A stretch of DNA of 37,677 nucleotides from a virus (taxonomy: Duplodnaviria; Heunggongvirae; Uroviricota; Caudoviricetes). The translations under genes were made by a program, and so were the position numbers. The DNA lies in IMG/VR virus record IMGVR_UViG_2579778866_000003. One strand, given 5' to 3'. The notes under the pieces were generated by a model. The model did not search any database. It saw only the letters and a program-made list of their open reading frames with translations, and was not told where the DNA came from. Of this stretch, positions 2,833-15,504 are shown in pieces (within the stretch, counting starts at the first letter, position 1; the number at the start of each line of letters is the position of its first letter).

Positions 2833-3429
2833 TTAATTCGAGACTATTGTACTTCTTATACAAGCAACCACTTCAATATCAGAAAATGCACATTCAAAGC
2901 TATTCTCTGCTGTTGTAATTTTAATCATTCCTTTAGGAAGCCTTGTGATTTTTCGAATGGAATAGGTTCCGTCGATATTGATTAACCAGTTTCCATCAAG
3001 TACTTCAGAAAATTTTTGATCACAAATGTATGTGACGAGTCCATCCTGAACAACAATTGGTGATGAAAGGTTTGCAGGAAGAAATGATGAATCGAAGACA
3101 TATGAACCGTCTTCAATCATTTTGCCTGCGGCAAGGCGAAACTTAACAAGCTCTTCTGTAGCTGCTGTCAGCGAGCTTTGCTTAAGGCCTTGTCCGGTAG
3201 TTAACCATTTGAGGGAGGTTCCTGTTTCAAGAGCACATTGGATTATCCAGTCAGCAGGAAATGTATCCCGCAAATACCTGTTCGCTAGTGTGCTTTTTGA
3301 TACTTCCAAGTGATCAGCTAAAGCCTGTCGTGTCGTAAAGCCATAGGCTTCGACTAATCGCTCAATCGCAGCCTTACCACCTTTATTGGGATTTATTTTG
3401 ATCTCACTTGGGTACTTTGATGTTGGCAT
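2833..3429 (-). CDS. cI: CI-type immunity repressor (186 CI-like)
   Basis: 198 aa; N-terminal segment LADHLEVSKSTLANRYLRDTFPADWIIQCALETGTSLKWLTTGQG resembles the phage CI repressor HTH family; divergent from the apl/cII lytic operon. Confidence 0.7.
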   Translation of the reverse strand: MPTSKYPSEIKINPNKGGKAAIERLVEAYGFTTRQALADHLEVSKSTLANRYLRDTFPADWIIQCALETGTSLKWLTTGQGLKQSSLTAATEELVKFRLAAGKMIEDGSYVFDSSFLPANLSSPIVVQDGLVTYICDQKFSEVLDGNWLINIDGTYSIRKITRLPKGMIKITTAENSFECAFSDIEVVACIRSTIVSN

Positions 3430-5352: not shown

Positions 5353-5579
5353 TGGCTGATGCAATGGATCTCGTACAGCAGCGCGTTGAAGAAGAACGCC
5401 AGCGCCATATCCGTGCAGCCCGTGCCAAATCACCGGGCGTGTCACGCGTACTTTGCATTGAATGTGAAGCGCCAATTCCGCCAGCACGACGCCGCGCCAT
5501 TCCGGGAGTGCAGCTTTGCATTACCTGTCAGGAAATCGCAGAACTGAAAGGCAAACATTACAACGGAGGTGCTGTATGA
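5352..5579 (+). CDS. TraR/DksA-family C4 zinc-finger protein
   Basis: 75 aa with CIECEAPIP ... CITCQ (CxxC-N17-CxxC) pattern; AGGAG Shine-Dalgarno. Confidence 0.7.
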   Translation: MADAMDLVQQRVEEERQRHIRAARAKSPGVSRVLCIECEAPIPPARRRAIPGVQLCITCQEIAELKGKHYNGGAV

Positions 5580-6433
5580 GCACTATCCTGAAATGGGCGG
5601 GAAATAAAACCGCCATTATGCCAGAACTGAAAAAATACCTTCCTGCTGGCCCGCGACTGGTTGAACCTTTCGCGGGTTCCTGTGCTGTGATGATGGAAAC
5701 GGATTATCCCAGCTATCTGGTTGCGGATATTAATCCTGATTTAATCAACCTCTATAAAAAGGTTGCCGCTGATTGTGAATCGTTTATATCTCGCGCCAGA
5801 GTTTTATTTGAGATCGCAAACAGGGAGGTGGCTTATTACAACATAAGGCAGGAGTTTAACTGCTCAACTGAAATTACTGATTTCATGAAAGCGGTATATT
5901 TCCTGTATCTCAATCGTCACGGTTACCGTGGTTTATGTCGCTATAACAAGAGCGGGCATTTCAACATTCCCTACGGTAATTATAAAAATCCGTATTTCCC
6001 TGAAAAAGAACTTCGCACATTTGCAGAAAAAGCCCAGCGAGCAACGTTTATCTGCGCCAGCTTTGATGAAACGCTGGCGATGTTGAAGGCGGGAGATGTG
6101 GTGTATTGCGATCCGCCATATGACGGTACGTTTTCCGGCTATCACACTGATGGTTTCACTGAAGATGACCAGTATCACCTGGCATCCATTCTTGAACATC
6201 GGTCATCAGAAGGACATCCGGTCATTGTTTCTAACAGTGACACATCCCTGATCCGTTCGCTGTATCGCAATTTTACTCACCACTATATCAAGGTTAAACG
6301 CAGCATCGGTGTGGCAACTGGCGAGGGTAAATCAGCAACAGAAATCATTGCTGTTTCCGGGCCGCGCTGCTGGATGGGATTTGATTATTCGCGTGGCGTG
6401 GATAGTTCTGCCGTGTACGGAGTACGTGCATGA
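5576..6433 (+). CDS. dam: DNA adenine methyltransferase (Dam-like)
   Basis: [12 protein letters not shown]-terminus, FAGSCAV motif I and VYCDPPY (DPPY) motif; GGAGGT Shine-Dalgarno; start overlaps the TraR-like stop. Confidence 0.85.
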
Positions 6434-8844
6434 GTCATGCCGATATGAACAACTGCTGCGGCTTTAACGAGGCTGCCGCAGCATTCTCATGGAACAGCCC
6501 GAAAAAGGCCATTAACCCTTATCTGGACCCGGCGGAAGTTGCGCCGGTTTCTACGCTTTCAAACCTGATCACTCTGTACGCTGCCGATAACGAGCAGGAA
6601 CAGTTGCGCCGCGAGGCACTGAGTGATCAGGTCTGGGAGCGTTATTTCTTTAATGAATCACGTGATCCTGTCCAGCGCGAAATGGAGCAGGATAAGCTCA
6701 TTAGCCGGGCAAAGCTGGCGCATGAGCAGCAGCGTTTTAATTCAGACATGGTCATTCTGGCGGACGTCAACGCCCTGCCTTCCCATATCAGCAAGCCGCT
6801 GATGCAACGTATTGAATACTTCAGCAGCCTGGGCAGGCCAAAGGCTTATTCCCGCTATTTACGTGAGACGATTAAGCCATGTCTGGAACGACTGGAGCAT
6901 GTACGCGACAGTCAGCTATCTGCATCTTTTCGCTTTATGGCAAGCCATGAAGGGCTGGACGGCCTGCTGATCCTGCCTGAAATGAGTCAGGATCAGGTGA
7001 AACGCCTGTCCACCCTGGTAGCTGCGCATATGAGTATGTGCCTTGATGCAGCTTGTGGTGATTTGTATGCCACCGATGACGTTAAGCCAGAAGAAATCCG
7101 CAAGACATGGGAAAAGGTGGCAGCGGAAACCCTGCGTCTGGATGTCATCCCACCTGCGTTTGAGCAACTCCGTCGGAAAAGAAACCGCCGTAAACCCGTG
7201 CCCTATGAACTCATTCCGGGTTCGCTGGCGCGTATGTTGTGCGCCGACTGGTGGTATCGGAAATTATGGAAGATGCGTTGCGAATGGCGGGAAGAGCAGT
7301 TGCGCGCTGTTTGCCTGGTCAGCAAAAAAGCATCTCCTTATGTCAGCTATGAAGCCGTGATGCATAAACGTGAGCAGCGCCGTAAGTCGCTGGAGTTTTT
7401 CCGTTCTCATGAACTGGTGAACGAAGACGGCGACACGCTGGACATGGAGGATGTGGTAAACGCCAGCAGCAGCAACCCTGCGCATCGCCGCAATGAGATG
7501 ATGGCCTGTGTTAAAGGTCTGGAGCTTATTGCGGAAATGCGCGGTGACTGCGCCGTTTTCTACACTATCACCTGTCCGTCGCGTTTCCATTCCACGCTAA
7601 ATAACGGCAGACCAAACCCGACCTGGACAAACGCGACGGTAAGACAAAGCAGCGATTATCTGGTCGGCATGTTTGCTGCATTTCGTAAGGCGATGCACAA
7701 AGCCGGGTTGCGCTGGTATGGCGTGCGGGTGGCTGAGCCGCATCATGATGGCACAGTTCACTGGCACCTGTTGTGTTTCATGCGCAAAAAAGACCGCCGT
7801 GCCATCACTGCATTACTGCGTAAGTTTGCCATCCGTGAAGACCGCGAGGAGCTGGGCAATAACACTGGGCCGCGCTTTAAGTCTGAGTTGATTAACCCGC
7901 GCAAAGGAACGCCGACAAGCTACATCGCGAAATATATCAGTAAGAACATTGACGGTCGTGGTCTGGCTGGCGAGATCAGCAAGGAAACGGGTAAATCTCT
8001 GCGTGATAACGCTGAATACGTGAATGCCTGGGCGTCTCTGCATCGTGTTCAGCAATTCCGCTTCTTTGGTATTCCGGGGCGTCAGGCTTACCGTGAACTT
8101 CGCTTGCTGGCTGGTCAGGCGGCAAGGCAACAGGGTGACAAAAAAGCAGGTGCGCCGGTACTGGATAACCCGCGTCTTGATGCCATTCTGGCTGCTGCTG
8201 ATGCTGGTTGTTTTGCCACCTACATCATGAAGCAGGGCGGCGTACTGGTTCCCCGTAAATATCACCTCATCAGAACCGCTTATGAAATCAACGAAGAGCC
8301 GACCGCCTATGGCGATCACGGCATTCGTATTTATGGCATCTGGTCACCCATTGCAGAGGGCAAGATCTGCACCCATGCAGTGAAGTGGAAAATGGTTCGT
8401 AAAGCCGTTGACGTTCAGGAGGCGGCAGCCGACCAGGGCGCTTGCGCCCCTTGGACTCGTGGCAATAACTGTCCCCTTGCTGAAAATTTGAACCAACAGG
8501 AGAAAGATAAATCAGCTGATGGGGACATCAGAACGGACATTACCCGCATGGATGACAAGGAGTTGCACGATTACCTGCACAGTATGAGCAAAAAAGAGCG
8601 CCGGGAACTGGCTGCAAGGTTACGCCTGGTTAAACCGAAACGGCGTAAAGACTACAAACAGCGAATTACAGACCATCAGCGACTGCAGCTCGTCTATGAG
8701 CTGAAGTCCAGAGGATTTGATGGTAGCGAGAAAGAGGTCGATTTACTCCTTCGCGGCGGCAGTATTCCGTCAGGAGCAGGCCTGCGTATCTTCTATCGGA
8801 ACCAGCGTTTGCAGGAAGATGATAAGTGGCGGAACCTGTATTAA
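6430..8844 (+). CDS. A: Replication initiation endonuclease (P2 gpA-like)
   Basis: 804-aa protein at the P2 A position; start overlaps the dam stop. Confidence 0.8.
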
Positions 8845-9196: not shown

Positions 9197-9430
9197 ATGC
9201 GCATTGAAATAATGATCGATAAAGAGCAGAAGATTAGCCAGTCTACCCTGGACGCCCTTGAATCCGAGCTTTACCGCAATCTGCGCCCCCTGTATCCCAA
9301 AACGGTAATTCGTATCCGCAAAGGTAGCTCTAACGGTGTGGAACTTACCGGATTGCAACTGGACGAAGAAAGAAAACAAGTGATGAAAATTATGCAGAAG
9401 GTGTGGGAAGACGACAGCTGGCTGCATTAA
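9197..9430 (+). CDS. DinI-family protein (Tum/DinI-like)
   Basis: 77 aa, MRIEIMIDKEQKISQSTLDALESELYRNLRPLYP ... KVWEDDSWL matches the DinI family pattern; GAGGTG Shine-Dalgarno. Confidence 0.75.
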   Translation: MRIEIMIDKEQKISQSTLDALESELYRNLRPLYPKTVIRIRKGSSNGVELTGLQLDEERKQVMKIMQKVWEDDSWLH

Positions 9431-9620: not shown

Positions 9621-10031
9621 TTACAAAACATCAACAACTTCAAACTCTTCCATAATCAGCTCCATATCATCAGAAAAGTAACCTTCACATGTAAAAAATC
9701 GTTGATGCTCTCTCTGCCAATATTCAAGACTCAAATCGCCTTCACCTTCCTTGCGAGCGAACTCGGCAGTAACATCACAAAAACGCACCAGTCGCATCGA
9801 CACCAGCCGGGTCACGCATACCGGTACATCTTGGCCGTTAAGGATGATGTTATAGCTCCCAATCCTTGGGGCAAACTCTTCCTTCTGGTAAGAGGCATAA
9901 GAGCCGCAGGAGGCCGTTTTAATTCCTTTTTTGATAAGCGCTGCAAGCTCGTTAGCCAGTTCAGGGCTGTCGCCCATTTGCCAGGCATTCGCGTCCGGAT
10001 ATTTCATCTTTAATTCATCAACCGTAACCAT
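9621..10031 (-). CDS. ASCH-domain protein (PUA-like fold)
   Basis: 136 aa; N-terminal WQMGDSPELANELAALIKKGIKTASCG resembles the ASCH domain signature; encoded antisense to flanking genes; AT-rich. Confidence 0.55.
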   Translation of the reverse strand: MVTVDELKMKYPDANAWQMGDSPELANELAALIKKGIKTASCGSYASYQKEEFAPRIGSYNIILNGQDVPVCVTRLVSMRLVRFCDVTAEFARKEGEGDLSLEYWQREHQRFFTCEGYFSDDMELIMEEFEVVDVL

Positions 10032-10313
10032 TACAAGTCCTTTCTAATTGTAAAAATAGATAAATAGCTGAGCATTAATTGTTCAAATATTAACAGTGAT
10101 GCTCTCTTGTTAGTATCATAGTCCGTTTCTCGTTCACAGTGGGCCTTCAGTTTTTTGTCTGCTTTGTGCCAAAAACAGACGTCTAAATATCCTATTGTCA
10201 GTTATAAAAAGTGATGAGTGTTCTACATATTAAATTTACAGAGGCAGAAACTCCGTGTTTAAATACGGTTCTTTCCACCCAATAAGCATTAACAACTTAA
10301 GGACCCCATAAAA

Positions 10314-11276
10314 ATGCCAGTATTAGACTTCAAAGAAATACCAGAGGCTCATAAAGCAACAGGGCTGCAAGACACATTTGAACTTTTTTCTCGCGACTTC
10401 TTAGCTTTTCTGGGATATAAAATTATATCTGACCCAGATAGAGGGGCTGACGGTGGGGTTGATATTATAGCCGAAGAAAAAAGGACTGGTGTCGGCGGGG
10501 AAACAATTATCCGTTGGTTGGTAAGCTGTAAGCATAAAGCTCATAGTGGAAATTCAGTTAATCCAGGAGATGATGCAAATATTACTGATCGAGTAATAGC
10601 GAATAACTGCCAAGGATTTATCGGGTTCTATTCAACTCTTGCTAGTGCAGGTCTGTCTGGAATACTTGACGGGTTGAAAGGACGAATTGAATTTCAGGTT
10701 TTCGATAAAGAGAAAATAGAGAGGGAACTTTTACACTCTTCCAGAGGATTGGAAATTGCCGAAAGGTACTTCCCAAAGTCGTTATCTGAGTGGAAAACAG
10801 AAAACCCCAAACCCGCAAGAATATTTTCCGATGAACCTAGCTTAAAATGCAAAGTTTGCAAGAAAGAGCTTCTGTCTCAAGACGACAAGGGAATTATCAC
10901 TATATGGCAAAGAATCCGCACCGACTACGAAAAAGAACCAGAGTATAATGAACATATTTTTTGGACGTGTCGAGGCAACTGCGACCAAGCACTCCGGCAG
11001 TATGTTAGAAAACAAACAAACAATGGCCTTATTGATGGCTGGGAAGATATAGCTGATGTAATGATGCCAACTGTGTTTATAAAATGGGTCATGACAATAA
11101 TGAATGAGTTAAGATCTGGGACCCTATATTCAGATGAGGCATTTGACGAACTCAAGACATTTTTGATCAATATTTACCCATTTGCATGTCGTCATCTCAC
11201 CGAAAAAGAAAAAGAAAGGGTTAAATCATTAATGATGATACCTTCGTATCTTGGCGGCATGAACTATGAAGGTTAA
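10314..11276 (+). CDS. Mrr-cat-like (PD-(D/E)xK) nuclease domain fused to a Cys-containing C-terminal domain of unknown function
   Basis: 320 aa; N-terminus FLAFLGYKIISDPDRGADGGVDIIAEEK ... RWLVSCKHK resembles the Mrr restriction-endonuclease catalytic domain; C-terminal half has CKVCKK and CRGNCD; AT-rich. Confidence 0.65.
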   Translation: MPVLDFKEIPEAHKATGLQDTFELFSRDFLAFLGYKIISDPDRGADGGVDIIAEEKRTGVGGETIIRWLVSCKHKAHSGNSVNPGDDANITDRVIANNCQGFIGFYSTLASAGLSGILDGLKGRIEFQVFDKEKIERELLHSSRGLEIAERYFPKSLSEWKTENPKPARIFSDEPSLKCKVCKKELLSQDDKGIITIWQRIRTDYEKEPEYNEHIFWTCRGNCDQALRQYVRKQTNNGLIDGWEDIADVMMPTVFIKWVMTIMNELRSGTLYSDEAFDELKTFLINIYPFACRHLTEKEKERVKSLMMIPSYLGGMNYEG

Positions 11277-11352
11277 GAGAGGGGGCGTTAGCCATCTTCG
11301 AGAGTATTCAGTAAGGATTTGAAGAGAGAATATATAAATAGACCATTTATAC

Positions 11353-11397
11353 CTGAACAGAAGTCATATTGAGCTAGACGTTTCTGTTCAGTTTTTT
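11353..11397 (+). terminator. Rho-independent terminator downstream of the Mrr-like gene
   Basis: Perfect 10-bp inverted repeat CTGAACAGAA (11353-11362) / TTCTGTTCAG (11382-11391) followed by TTTTTT. Confidence 0.5.
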
Positions 11398-11767
11398 AGT
11401 GTCTTCATTATCATATATCGCTCGAAAAGTCTCCCCGAAAACCAAGAGCATTTCCTTAATTGAAGTTGCTGTTGTCACCGCTGCGCATCCGTAACAGCTT
11501 ACATGCTGCTTCGCTCTGTTTCAGTGCCAAAAAGCAAGGAGTTAATGTCCGCTTTTCACTCACAGCGGACTTTCATCTTTGTAAACCCGTATGATTCGCT
11601 TTTCAGCGGTCATTCAGATACGGATTTACGCTTCCCTTGGCTGTGCATGACTATGCTGCATGAAATCGCATGATCGATTGAGGATCGTTTTTGCAGAGAC
11701 CTGCTAGAACTGGCGAGCTTTTACTCATGTCATGCAGGTGCATGAAAACCACTGCATAAAGCGGGCA

Positions 11768-11793
11768 GGCGTGGCGGGGATACGATTGCGCGC
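11768..11793 (+). other. Candidate cos site (cohesive-end region)
   Basis: GGCGTGGCGGGGATACGAT followed by TGCGCGC; the first 13 nt and the following TGCGCGC match my recollection of the P2/186 19-nt cohesive end and its flank; located before Q as in P2. Confidence 0.4.
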
Positions 11794-11867
11794 AGAAGAT
11801 TATTATTGGTACACTGTCGGTGACTCTCTACGCAGATCTTACACATTAATTTCTAATGGGGCATGCT

Positions 11868-12668
11868 ATGATCTTTCTAAGTCATAATCACCGTGACAAA
11901 AGGTTTGTAAGTGTTATAGCGGAAAAACTAGCAGATGTTTATGGGCGTGATAACGTATTCTACGATTCTTGGTCTATCCAACCCGGAGAGGGTATTATTG
12001 ACAAGATGAATTTAGGAATGGAGAATGTATCGTTCTTTTTCTTTTTTGTCACAGAAAATAGTTTGGCAAGTAACATGGTAAAAATGGAATGGCAAAATGC
12101 TTTAATTAAGGCATCGTCCGGGAAGTGTAAATTTATACCAATACGTTGCCAGAATATATCCTTGCCTGCTCTGCTTACTCAAACGCTATATATTGATCTT
12201 TATTCGTATGGGATCGATGTGGCAATAAGACAAATTATAGATGTCATTAATCAACAAAATACGTATATTCCTAATCCTGAGAAGTATTCAAACCTCTCCT
12301 ATGATATTAAGGATGGTGATGGGGGTAAGATAGTGAAATTATCAGCAATGGATTTTTTAGAACCAATTGCTGATTTTATGATGATTATGGATAATACAAT
12401 TAAGCATGATGATGTTGTTGTTATGGTCAATGGAGAAAGCACATTCACTCAGGGGTTTATTGAAAATGCATCTTTAGAAAATGGTATGAAAGTAAGTGGT
12501 GCCACTGTTGGCCTAAATCGGGGGTTAACACCAACGATGCCAATGTATGTTTCTCTTAGGTTAAAGGATGGTTCACCTTTGAATATATTTGCGGTGCTAC
12601 ATCGAGTAAGTACCGAGCGTTATGCTCCTATACCACATAAAGCCGATGATGCCTTTAGAGTAAAATAA
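11868..12668 (+). CDS. TIR-domain protein with C-terminal domain of unknown function
   Basis: N-terminus IFLSHNHRDKRFVSVIAEKL ... VFYDSWSIQPGEGIIDKM ... FFFFFVTENSLASNMVKMEWQNAL fits the bacterial TIR pattern; alternative ATG at 11856; AT-rich; sits between cos and Q. Confidence 0.7.
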   Translation: MIFLSHNHRDKRFVSVIAEKLADVYGRDNVFYDSWSIQPGEGIIDKMNLGMENVSFFFFFVTENSLASNMVKMEWQNALIKASSGKCKFIPIRCQNISLPALLTQTLYIDLYSYGIDVAIRQIIDVINQQNTYIPNPEKYSNLSYDIKDGDGGKIVKLSAMDFLEPIADFMMIMDNTIKHDDVVVMVNGESTFTQGFIENASLENGMKVSGATVGLNRGLTPTMPMYVSLRLKDGSPLNIFAVLHRVSTERYAPIPHKADDAFRVK

Positions 12669-12677
12669 AAAGCAATA

Positions 12678-12703
12678 TGGTGGCTATATAATTAAGGCCA
12701 CCA
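12678..12703. terminator. Bidirectional hairpin between the convergent TIR gene and Q
   Basis: TGGTGGC (12678-12684) / GCCACCA (12697-12703) stem with T-rich sequence on the minus strand downstream of the Q stop. Confidence 0.45.
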
Positions 12704-12712
12704 ATTTATATC

Positions 12713-13741
12713 TCATAAACAATAGGATGAAAATGCAATAACTTTCTCACCCAGCCAATGGTTTAACTCCTCCATGCGTTTCTGTAATGGCAAAAGTTCA
12801 TTGCGCACAAACACATTTGCGGCCTTCTCCACATCCCCAAACCCTCCAACATTATTAGGCATAATCCCCATCATTTGCGGCGGCACGCGGTGCGCAGCCA
12901 TCATGTCATCGCGGCTCACGTTCTTGATATTCAAAAACTCATCCTTCGCCGCCACCTCTGACAACGGGATAATCTGAAGCCCGTCCTTTTTGCCGTTAGG
13001 CGAGTACATAAACAGGTTGCGGAAGTTACCCGGACCTTTGGCACTTTTCATTGCATTGCGGAGGTTGTTCACGTCCTCCTGGTTCTGCGCAGCATCGGTC
13101 ATGTACATGATGAAGCCTGCATGACTACCGTTAATGTAATACTTGCGGCGGAACAGCGTGGCGGACTCATTGAGCAGGGCGGACGGAATGGCAGAAAGAT
13201 AGCCGGGCAGGCCGTAGATCTCCTGGTTAATGTCCGGTTCCATCAGATGAAAAATGCTGCCTTTCGTGAACTGATACGGCTGGGTTGTCATACCGTATTG
13301 CACAAACCAGTAGGTATCCAGGTCTAACCCGCGTCGGGTGTATTTTGCCAGAGCAGGCTCAAGGGCGATAACTTCACCGAAGCGGTTCGTGCGTTTCTCC
13401 AGGTAGGCGTTACCAAATACCAGATAGTCCTGCACAAAACGTGAAAAAGCCTGCTGGCTGAGCAGCGGGTGAGGGATGTAGGTACTGGTCAGAATGTTGC
13501 ATTTCACCGCAATTGGTGAACTGTGATGCACGGCGGCGCGGAAGGTGCGCGCCAGTCCGTCAAAGCTTACTGGCGGCTCATACCAGCGATCTGTCTGTAC
13601 GCATTCCACATAGTCCAGCAGTTCTCGGCGGTCCAGAACAGGAACGGGATCGCCGAAGCTGAATGCTTCGGCTGTAGTTTGACTTTTAAGCTGGATCTGT
13701 TTCGTCGCCGCAGCGCGGTTCTTCTTACTCTTTCCCATCAA
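12713..13741 (-). CDS. Q: Portal protein (P2 gpQ-like)
   Basis: 342 aa; first gene after cos on the minus strand; overlaps the P stop. Confidence 0.85.
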   Translation of the reverse strand: MMGKSKKNRAAATKQIQLKSQTTAEAFSFGDPVPVLDRRELLDYVECVQTDRWYEPPVSFDGLARTFRAAVHHSSPIAVKCNILTSTYIPHPLLSQQAFSRFVQDYLVFGNAYLEKRTNRFGEVIALEPALAKYTRRGLDLDTYWFVQYGMTTQPYQFTKGSIFHLMEPDINQEIYGLPGYLSAIPSALLNESATLFRRKYYINGSHAGFIMYMTDAAQNQEDVNNLRNAMKSAKGPGNFRNLFMYSPNGKKDGLQIIPLSEVAAKDEFLNIKNVSRDDMMAAHRVPPQMMGIMPNNVGGFGDVEKAANVFVRNELLPLQKRMEELNHWLGEKVIAFSSYCL

Positions 13742-15504
13742 AAAATCTCCACAATATTGCTGGTATTGGCGGACTCGCCTTGCAGCGGTTCGTTAAACAG
13801 TGCGTGCATCGTTGCCCAGGCCAGATCCGCATGGCTGGCTTCTTCGCTGCGGCTGGCTTCATAGGTCGGGCGGTTGCCACTGGCGGTGGTGGAGCGACGG
13901 ATTGCCATAAAGGACTGCGCTATGTCGGTGTGTCCGGCGTCAAACTCCAGACGGCGGTGGCTGATAATGTCGTAGGCCTTGAGTACCAGGGCGTTTTTAA
14001 CGTTGGGGTTGTAGACAAACTCCCGGACGGCAGGAAAGAATGCTTTCACGTTCTCGTAAACCCCGTGGCCGACGCCAGTTGAGTCGATGCCGATGTATGT
14101 CACGTTGTACTGTTCGGTCAGTTTTTTGATGGCGTCAGCCTGGGCGCGGAAGTCCATCCCGCGCCACTGGTGACGCTCAAGAATGCGGAACTTACCGCCC
14201 GGCACGGCTGGCGGTGCCACCACCACGCACCCGGCGCTGTCGCCGTTCTGCGTACCTTTTGCCGGGTCATAACCGATCCACACCTCGCGCCAGCCAAACG
14301 GGCGCAGCGCCAGTGCATGAAAGTCGGTCCAGACTTCCCAGCTGTCCACCATGCACGCCTGCAGCTCGCTGAGCGGGAACACGGACGCGAGATCGTCCAC
14401 AAACTCGCACATCAGCAGGTTCTGGTATTCGTCCGGGCTGTACTCCATGCGCAACTGGTCAAGGTCGAACAGGTTACAGCCGCCGCGCACCGCATCTTCC
14501 ACGGTGACTATCTGGCGGTACTGCCCGTCTGCGCACAGCAGGCCGGGGGCCAGATTGCGGTGGGACAGGTCGATGTCCACCTTATCGGCTTTGTTGCGCC
14601 CTCGGTTGAACAGCGCACCGGACCAGAACGGATAAGCACTGTGTGTCAGGCTGGATGGCGTGGAAAAATAGGTTTGTCGCCATTTTTTGTGAATAGCCAT
14701 ACCGGAAGCCACTTTGCGCAGCTCCTGGAATTTCGGTATCCAGAAATATTCATCCAGATACAGGTTGCCGTGGTAACTCTGGGCCGTGCGGGCATTGGTG
14801 CCGAGGAAGTAAAGCGTGGCCCCGTTAGGAAGCACCATCGGATCGCCTTTCAGCTCCACCTCCACTTCTTTGGCGAAGTCGATGATGTACTGCTTAAAGA
14901 CGTGGGCCTGTGCCTTACTGGCGGAAAGGAAAATCTGGTTACGCCCGGTAAGCAGGGCGTCAATCAGGGCTTCACGGGCAAAGTAAAAGGTCGCGCCGAT
15001 CTGGCGTGACTTCAGCAGATTGCGGATGCGGTTGGTTTTTCCGGCTTCCCACCAGTGGCGCTGGTAGTTGAACATGGAGGAATGGAAGATTTCTTCCAGC
15101 TTCTCAATCTGCTCATCGGTGAAAACATTCTTTTCCGGCTGACGGCGTGGGCCTTTGTTGCGGTTGGCGACGTTTGGGTTTAAGTCGGCTTCGTTGCCGC
15201 CATTGTTAAACTTGCCGATCCGCGCGTGGCGCTCCGACTGGCGCGCCAGCAGGTCAATCTCTTTGAAATCTTTCCCTTCTTTGTGCTCCTTCATGATGAG
15301 CTGGCAGTAGCGTGCGGCGGTGGTGAGCTGCATCTGATCCAGCGGCCCATAGTCACCCCACTTGTCGCGTTTTTTCCAGCTGTGAACGGTTGCAACTTTC
15401 TCGCCCAGCATTTCAGCTATGCGGGCTACGCGGTATCCCTGAAAGTACAGCAGCATGGCCTGCCGACGGGGATCGAGATCTGCGGGTGTCAGTGTGGTGT
15501 TCAT
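13738..15504 (-). CDS. P: Terminase large subunit (P2 gpP-like)
   Basis: 588 aa; divergent from O with a shared intergenic promoter region. Confidence 0.85.
   Translation of the reverse strand: MNTTLTPADLDPRRQAMLLYFQGYRVARIAEMLGEKVATVHSWKKRDKWGDYGPLDQMQLTTAARYCQLIMKEHKEGKDFKEIDLLARQSERHARIGKFNNGGNEADLNPNVANRNKGPRRQPEKNVFTDEQIEKLEEIFHSSMFNYQRHWWEAGKTNRIRNLLKSRQIGATFYFAREALIDALLTGRNQIFLSASKAQAHVFKQYIIDFAKEVEVELKGDPMVLPNGATLYFLGTNARTAQSYHGNLYLDEYFWIPKFQELRKVASGMAIHKKWRQTYFSTPSSLTHSAYPFWSGALFNRGRNKADKVDIDLSHRNLAPGLLCADGQYRQIVTVEDAVRGGCNLFDLDQLRMEYSPDEYQNLLMCEFVDDLASVFPLSELQACMVDSWEVWTDFHALALRPFGWREVWIGYDPAKGTQNGDSAGCVVVAPPAVPGGKFRILERHQWRGMDFRAQADAIKKLTEQYNVTYIGIDSTGVGHGVYENVKAFFPAVREFVYNPNVKNALVLKAYDIISHRRLEFDAGHTDIAQSFMAIRRSTTASGNRPTYEASRSEEASHADLAWATMHALFNEPLQGESANTSNIVEIF

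Follow-up and report, generated by a model that had tools for sequence, protein, structure and literature searches.

Two probably independent single-gene cargo modules on either side of cos in a P2-like prophage

The locus between the replication gene A (gpA) and the portal gene Q (gpQ) of P2-like phages has been described as a defence hotspot (PMC9122126), and a 2026 study reported rapid swapping of P2 defence loci, stacked defence systems in 10% of the defence-carrying P2 elements, and near-identical copies of P2 defence genes in cryptic islands (PMC13586616). In the current work, a 37,677-nt stretch of DNA (IMG/VR record IMGVR_UViG_2579778866_000003, hereafter referred to as the window) was analysed, which represents a P2-like prophage with head and tail genes up to approximately 34.5 kb, followed by host genes. 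Between gpA and gpQ, and adjoining the cohesive end site (cos), the window contains a gene for a 320-aa nuclease of the Mrr-type PD-(D/E)xK class (10314-11276, + strand) and a TIR gene (11856-12668, + strand). An initial annotation of this interval had proposed that the two genes may form a partnership in which the TIR protein generates a signal and the nuclease acts as effector, while regarding independent single-gene systems as at least as likely. The evidence presented here favours the latter: the interval very probably consists of two independent single-gene cargo modules, one in each of the two arms of the cos-proximal gpA-gpQ hotspot.

With respect to the TIR gene, the described systems considered for comparison were Thoeris, which combines the TIR protein ThsB with the effector ThsA (SIR2-SLOG or Macro-TM), and the single-protein systems TIR-V/VI/IX (Wang et al. 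2024), Cat1 (TIR-CARF) and SpbK, in each of which a TIR NADase-type domain and a second domain are present in one protein with no obligate partner (TIR-V/VI/IX being compared by architecture only), as also holds for the TIR protein of the window. Single-protein TIR systems are described as defending on their own in E. coli (PMC11350192). The nuclease was compared with Mrr/type IV restriction enzymes and with Mrr_cat effectors, these being MspJI, AspBHI and Avs4.

Co-occurrence and exchange of the nuclease and TIR genes

Co-occurrence of homologues was analysed for 111 loci of the TIR family (80 genomic and 31 viral, 1.78 Mb) and for 97 loci of the nuclease family (11 viral, 80 metagenomic and 6 genomic, 0.81 Mb), with a flank of up to 10 kb where present. 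A nuclease homologue was retrieved by tblastn in 0/111 TIR-family loci, and a TIR homologue in 0/97 nuclease-family loci. Hidden Markov models of the Mrr domain only and of the TIR domain only, applied with filters off to six-frame open reading frames (ORFs), also yielded no cross-match, with own-family controls detected in 111/111 and 97/97 loci. Clustering of all neighbouring ORFs within 4 kb revealed no recurrent partner for either family among these loci; recurrence was confined to integrases, to terminase, portal and antiterminator genes of the resident phage, and to a few HsdR genes, the largest clusters being those of integrases (10/111 loci) and of the resident phage's terminase genes. 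The co-neighbour pattern of Thoeris, in which a TIR gene and its effector are found side by side across genomes, was therefore considered and rejected (0/111 and 0/97). Outside one E. coli prophage lineage the pair was never found near each other in the loci examined, an outcome that the initial annotation had named as one that would refute a partnership.

Among close relatives, the nuclease gene is present in 23 complete E. coli genomes and the TIR gene in nine, both being present in one. Near-identical alleles of either gene occur apart from the other. The nuclease allele (99.9-100% nucleotide identity), accompanied by an ASCH-domain neighbour, is found across cos from a hypothetical protein plus a HIRAN protein, and also across cos from retron Ec67. 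In a wider set of assemblies, the exact nuclease protein was encountered across cos from a hypothetical protein plus a HIRAN protein, from a retron reverse transcriptase, or from a Schlafen-like ATPase (SLFN_AlbA_2/HATPase_c_4). Conversely, the partner across cos of TIR alleles that share 99.6-100% nucleotide identity is in some cases a 386-aa hypothetical protein and in others a DUF4145 protein or a DUF8087 protein of 111 aa. In a block map obtained by blastn, the right-arm blocks (gpA to cos) stop at 11793-11802 and the TIR-containing left-arm blocks start at 11540-11652, the overlap between the two corresponding to the cos core. Adjacency across cos in the prophage provides no evidence of an operon, since what lies on either side are the two termini of the packaged DNA, each of which is exchanged without the other, and the lead of a two-gene system is removed.

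The particular nuclease-TIR pairing found in the window would have arisen by recombination in the shared cos core of approximately 150 nt, in one prophage lineage. The paired copies share the same neighbouring proteins, and the representative of this group matches the window with 100% identity across 5 kb; the shared neighbours are why these copies are read as a single successful prophage lineage and not as repeated assembly.

The cos region and the two arms of the gpA-gpQ hotspot

The spacer that separates the nuclease and TIR genes encompasses 579 nt (11277-11855). An intrinsic-terminator-like element (11353-11397, + strand) was predicted by RNA folding 3' of the nuclease gene, consisting of a hairpin (11353-11391; dG -14.4 kcal/mol, z -3.0) and a UUUUUU tract (11392-11397), and is located within the mobile nuclease cassette described below. 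No Rfam family matched the spacer region in a search for non-coding RNAs. Conservation of the spacer is confined to approximately 11642-11795, for which 85 records, mostly from P2-like phages, were retrieved with 80-90% identity, and alignment to P2 cosL and to the cos of phage 186 places the conserved cos core of P2-like phages at 11642-11795. The cohesive end corresponds to 11768-11786 (GGCGTGGCGGGGATACGAT, 19 nt) and, when compared base for base to the annotated 19-nt cohesive ends (position 1 of the respective records), is identical to that of P2 at 14/19 positions and to that of phage 186 at 16/19. Judged from this alignment, the cos site is genuine and of the P2/186 type.

The linear packaged DNA has the TIR gene as its leftmost and the nuclease gene as its rightmost gene; the two become neighbours only in the circular or prophage form, where the ends of the genome are joined at cos. 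The observations of the initial annotation are all borne out at the coordinates given there, namely the domain assignments, the adjacency of the Mrr-like nuclease and TIR genes in the circular/prophage form with cos in between, a terminator and about 0.6 kb of non-coding DNA separating them, the presence of a cos-like sequence, and the AT-rich cargo nature of both genes, whose GC content amounts to 0.399 (nuclease) and 0.365 (TIR) as compared to 0.552 for the prophage core.

In the prototype phages P2 and 186 no gene is present between cosL and Q: approximately 190 nt separate cosL from the end of the portal gene, and this gap contains only a terminator. In the window the corresponding gap is 945 nt and is filled by the TIR gene, which is convergent with the portal gene Q (12713-13741, - strand; Pfam Phage_portal). 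Between these two genes, RNA folding predicted a GC-rich hairpin (12678-12703; dG -13.8 kcal/mol, z -3.6 on the + strand and dG -12.9 kcal/mol, z -2.8 on the - strand) which resembles a bidirectional terminator and is situated at the place of tQ in P2, an equivalent terminator being annotated in both P2 and 186.

The position of the two genes by cos between A and portal gene Q, their AT-rich and swappable content, and the fact that this content differs among otherwise near-identical prophages are features in common with the known gpA-gpQ/old/tin hotspot. Content was indeed found to vary, with at least four right-arm and at least four left-arm alternatives located beside A, P and Q genes that are 95-100% identical, and neither cargo gene is part of the conserved P2 core. 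What differs here from the hotspot as described is that its two arms are exchanged separately, with cos representing the junction. The swapping, stacking and near-identical island copies seen in the current work match those reported previously (PMC13586616), and the arrangement as such is ordinary for the gpA-gpQ hotspot, the remaining interest residing in the two gene families and in the two-arm structure.

A further observation concerns the portal gene, in which the last ≈35 codons (≈12713-12820) diverge as a block and segregate together with the cargo between cos and Q. When compared to prophages that lack the TIR gene, 14 of the 18-22 amino acid differences in Q fall at residues 308-341, while TIR-carrying prophages show no Q differences at these residues and their few differences are N-terminal. 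This clustering of differences next to the cargo fits a recombination boundary, and cargo swaps seem to carry the C-terminal tail of the portal protein along. The notion that the Q allele linked to the TIR gene represents a co-adapted 'self-portal' was dropped as unnecessary, as the differences are located in the last 35 codons, beside the cargo.

The region between cos and the TIR gene also contains a weak sigma-70-like pair, TTGCGC-18-TACACT (11786-11815), which was found by eye, matches at 8/12 positions and thus falls below the threshold of the promoter scan, and is speculative. Its -35 element overlaps the final base of the cohesive end. Were this pair the TIR promoter, such a promoter would exist only when cos is sealed. 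As a more speculative addition, the TIR gene, being located approximately 70-80 nt from the cohesive end, would be transcribed only in the circular/prophage form.

The remaining features of the prophage in this part of the window are the integrase gene (1-1053), a PD-Lambda-1 gene (1136-2812, - strand) located between the integrase and the CI repressor (2833-3429), a Dam-type methylase (5516-6433), gpA (6430-8844), DinI (9197-9430), an ASCH-domain gene (9621-10031, - strand; Pfam ASCH, E 1.3e-22) and, downstream of Q, terminase P (13738-15504, - strand). The PD-Lambda-1 gene (558 aa, GC 0.369) was identified by PADLOC with E 3e-120 as a known single-gene defence system, and its product matches Pfam DUF4041 and T5orf172/MUG113. 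The prophage therefore holds three candidate defence cargos in three hotspots, of which PD-Lambda-1 is the recognised one. The ASCH gene is a constant companion of the nuclease gene in the right-arm (gpA-to-cos) blocks of P2-like prophages, which include the arrangement 'ASCH + DinI + hyp + Mrr_cat + hyp + HIRAN' of Table S5A in PMC9122126 (Rousset et al. 2022). The nuclease of the window is itself an entry in the locus table of that study, under its exact accession WP_016248371 and in the company of ASCH, DinI and HIRAN, and in the main text of the study neither the nuclease nor the TIR gene is among the systems reported as tested. Beside the island copies of the nuclease gene and in other genera the ASCH gene is absent, and it is not a conserved partner elsewhere; it may represent a separate cargo or a regulator.

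Properties of the nuclease and TIR families

The nuclease is composed of an N-terminal domain (residues ≈1-160), which matches the Mrr_cat profile above its curated cut-off and has a matching fold, and a helical C-terminal domain. Across 29 aligned homologues, which are 60-90% identical to the nuclease of the window and include members from Gammaproteobacteria, Thermodesulfovibrionales, Nitrospiraceae, Desulfuromonadaceae and Alphaproteobacteria, residues E23, D46, D50, E55, S71, C72 and K73 are invariant. Four cysteines are likewise invariant (C179, C182, C219 and C223), and their pattern suggests a zinc site. The family is unusually conserved and comprises at least 1,000 full-length matches (clusters at 90% identity) from several phyla.

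Profile searches detected no SLOG, Macro, SAVED, CARF or STING sensor domain in the nuclease, which upholds the remark in the initial annotation that no recognisable nucleotide sensor (SLOG, Macro, SAVED) is present, and found no SRA-like or winged-helix reader domain either. For the C-terminal 156 aa, the only matches were to fragments from the protein's own family. When compared to MspJI, AspBHI and Avs4, the order of domains is reversed in that the nuclease domain is N-terminal, there is neither an SRA/winged-helix reader nor an NTPase, a four-cysteine motif and a helical domain without known relatives are present, and a serine replaces the usual E/Q. The strong purifying selection acting on the nuclease fits recognition of a chemical feature, for example a DNA modification. 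On balance the protein is somewhat likely to be a stand-alone restriction-type enzyme, which would cut foreign DNA either in a type IV-like manner or following activation by a trigger.

The nuclease gene is contained in a mobile one-gene cassette of approximately 1.4 kb (10165-11578, + strand), the boundaries of which were placed by the blastn map at 10121/10157/10165 and at 11570/11578, and which consists of ≈150 nt of upstream sequence, the coding sequence, the terminator and ≈300 nt of downstream sequence in total. Copies that are 98-99% identical are present in chromosomal islands other than P2, where the cassette occurs alone in at least three non-phage contexts; the exact nuclease protein is likewise encoded on its own in non-phage islands, with hsdMS or an adh/LysR locus as its neighbour. 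An HsdR gene is adjacent to the nuclease homologue at five loci of the family, and homologues also occur in Acinetobacter in prophage and island contexts. In V. cholerae, a 65%-identical homologue is part of the cassette array of the chromosome-2 superintegron (L213, 8001-8960; L214, 2555-3514), where it is flanked by DUF645 and DUF3709 cassettes and located beside an IS (rve) element and a DUF4365 gene. The Vibrio superintegron Mrr-domain systems Epona and Divona were considered as possible counterparts and rejected, as their architectures differ. The Z-region of P2-EC67 (AJ512685.1) contains a cassette whose only ORF (210-1121) encodes a 38%-identical homologue and has a promoter of its own; this cassette is flanked by inverted repeats of ≈100 nt, is situated in the other classical P2 hotspot (Z/fun), and its gene received the annotation 'putative lysogenic conversion protein' in the early 2000s. 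The nuclease gene decays in several lineages: in approximately 19 genomes of STEC and related strains it is located in a non-P2 island and contains a 4-nt deletion that results in a product of 244 aa (e.g. 2013C-3181; L003, 5001-5735), and the one complete RefSeq genome in which the TIR gene is present as well has a frameshifted copy annotated as 92 aa (L006, 6001-6279).

The TIR protein comprises 270 aa as an ORF and 266 aa from the likely true start at 11868. Its N-terminal part matches the TIR_2 profile with 81 bits, and in a profile alignment the invariant residue E78 falls in the column of the glutamate that is catalytic in AbTIR, PdTIR and Cat1. The best sequence match of the TIR profile in the PDB is Cat1 (263 aa; its residues 5-96, E 1.8e-9). 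The C-terminal domain of Cat1 is a CARF sensor; in contrast, the C-terminal domain of the TIR protein (residues ≈147-258) is all-beta in a structure model, is not a CARF domain, and has no relative in Pfam, the PDB or BFVD. It occurs only in proteins with the same layout of approximately 260 aa. Mean pairwise identity is 63% for the TIR domain and 34% for the C-terminal domain, and such a combination of a conserved TIR domain and a diverging, private C-terminal domain is what characterises a protein in which a rapidly evolving sensor is fused to an effector. The TIR protein thus resembles single-protein TIR systems in having the catalytic-type glutamate and a second domain that is putatively a sensor, and in lacking a conserved partner gene. 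It is fairly likely to act through phage-triggered assembly and depletion of NAD+ without a partner. In the mechanism proposed, the C-terminal domain would sense a cue of infection, upon which the TIR domains would assemble and NAD+ would be destroyed, this loss resulting in abortive infection in the absence of any partner protein.

The TIR family, too, has at least 1,000 full-length matches (clusters at 90% identity) in several phyla. In unrelated phages, a TIR homologue is located directly upstream of a small ORF followed by the small and large terminase subunits and the portal gene at seven loci, and upstream of the antiterminator gene Q at five (L020, L111, L119, L120 with the TIR gene at ≈10001-10780, L101, L102 and related loci). 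TIR homologues are therefore a recurrent phage cargo at moron sites near the genome end or the late-gene switch. A TIR homologue was found in 0/50,697 GenBank phage records. The RefSeq accessions are not mentioned in the paper texts that were searched, and PHROGs does not recognise either full-length family.

Weighing of the alternative readings and implications

Taken together, the nuclease and the TIR protein are highly likely to be independent of each other. The reading of two single-gene cargo modules builds on the identity of the genes, the cos site, the boundaries of the modules, the lack of co-occurrence and the lack of conserved partners, as established above. The right arm, at the end of the linear genome, would be a self-contained cassette of ≈1.4 kb carrying its own terminator and a stand-alone Mrr-type nuclease, and the left arm, from cosL to Q at the start of the linear genome, would carry a single TIR polypeptide with a private all-beta C-terminal domain. 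The alternative that had been put forward, in which a Thoeris-like pair spans cos, the TIR protein producing an ADPR-derived signal upon infection and the Mrr-like nuclease being the effector activated by it, is very improbable and is largely refuted by the co-occurrence data. Resemblance to Thoeris is limited to a bacterial TIR domain with the catalytic-type glutamate and to a weak match of the PADLOC ThsB profiles to the TIR protein (E 6.8e-4), whereas a conserved effector neighbour is lacking, none of the cargo genes of the window was found to encode a SLOG, Macro or SIR2 domain, and the adjacent nuclease was never beside TIR homologues elsewhere in the loci examined. Neither protein is a Thoeris member, given that the glutamate is present while the effector partnership and the sensor domain are not.

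Several observations weigh against the preferred reading of two independent modules, or against parts of it. The nuclease-TIR pair is present in 9/25 (TIR) and 10/26 (nuclease) of the longest contigs that contain the exact alleles, and the single co-occurrence in a complete genome exceeds the naive expectation of approximately 0.03 (4 x 9 / 1234, where 1234 genomes gave a match of some kind to the interval, in most cases to its cos core). The pair may be co-selected, and an alternative reading holds that the two systems are independent yet retained together in this lineage as a layered or synergistic defence without molecular interaction, for example with NAD+ depletion backing up restriction. 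This alternative is in keeping with the contig counts, with the presence of a third defence gene, PD-Lambda-1 (1136-2812), in the same prophage, and with the 10% of defence-carrying P2 elements in which systems are stacked across hotspots (PMC13586616); it is nevertheless considered unlikely. As regards the proteins, PADLOC 2.0.0 provides only a weak match for the nuclease (PDC-S02, E 0.004) and only weak, partial matches for the TIR protein (TIR-NLR, PDC-S66 and ThsB), and NCBIfam recognises neither full-length family. The (E/Q)xK motif of Mrr-type enzymes is expected to start with E or Q, a position which in the nuclease is taken by an invariant serine (S71-C72-K73), so that nuclease activity is not certain. 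The promoter scan of the + strand yielded no sigma-70 site with 9/12 or more matching positions upstream of the TIR gene within its module, which leaves the expression of this gene unexplained. Finally, both genes are defence candidates, for which we infer the anti-phage role, the NADase activity and the substrate of the nuclease.

It is on this last point that another reading turns, according to which one or both genes do not protect against phages: for the TIR protein, a role in lysogenic conversion or virulence through interference with host TLR signalling, as for TcpB/TcpC, or one as a phage counter-defence NADase is conceivable, and the nuclease could take part in the DNA metabolism of the phage itself. 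The weak match of the TIR profile to Brucella TcpB structures (E 6.5e-5 to 6.5e-4) and the 'lysogenic conversion' annotation of the P2-EC67 nuclease homologue point in this direction, and a defence role has only been inferred for both families. Such a reading is improbable considering that both families are spread over environmental, non-pathogenic phyla and many phages, that they occupy defence or moron slots (gpA-gpQ, the neighbourhood of type I restriction-modification genes, the superintegron, and positions beside terminase or antiterminator Q), and that neither gene belongs to the conserved P2 core.

Under the preferred reading of two separately exchanged single-gene modules, it is tentatively suggested, with somewhat less than an even chance of being correct, that both genes represent uncatalogued and widespread single-gene immune families, one being a TIR protein with a new type of sensor and the other a mobile nuclease that combines an Mrr domain, a zinc site and a helical domain. 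If this were true, the TIR gene would be carried repeatedly by temperate phages beside the packaging module or the late-gene switch, and the 1.4-kb nuclease cassette would hop among two P2 hotspots, chromosomal islands and the Vibrio superintegron. For the biology of P2-like prophages, the gpA-gpQ hotspot is refined to two arms joined at a recombination-prone cos core of approximately 150 nt, and two abundant single-gene families are flagged as candidates for defence assays.

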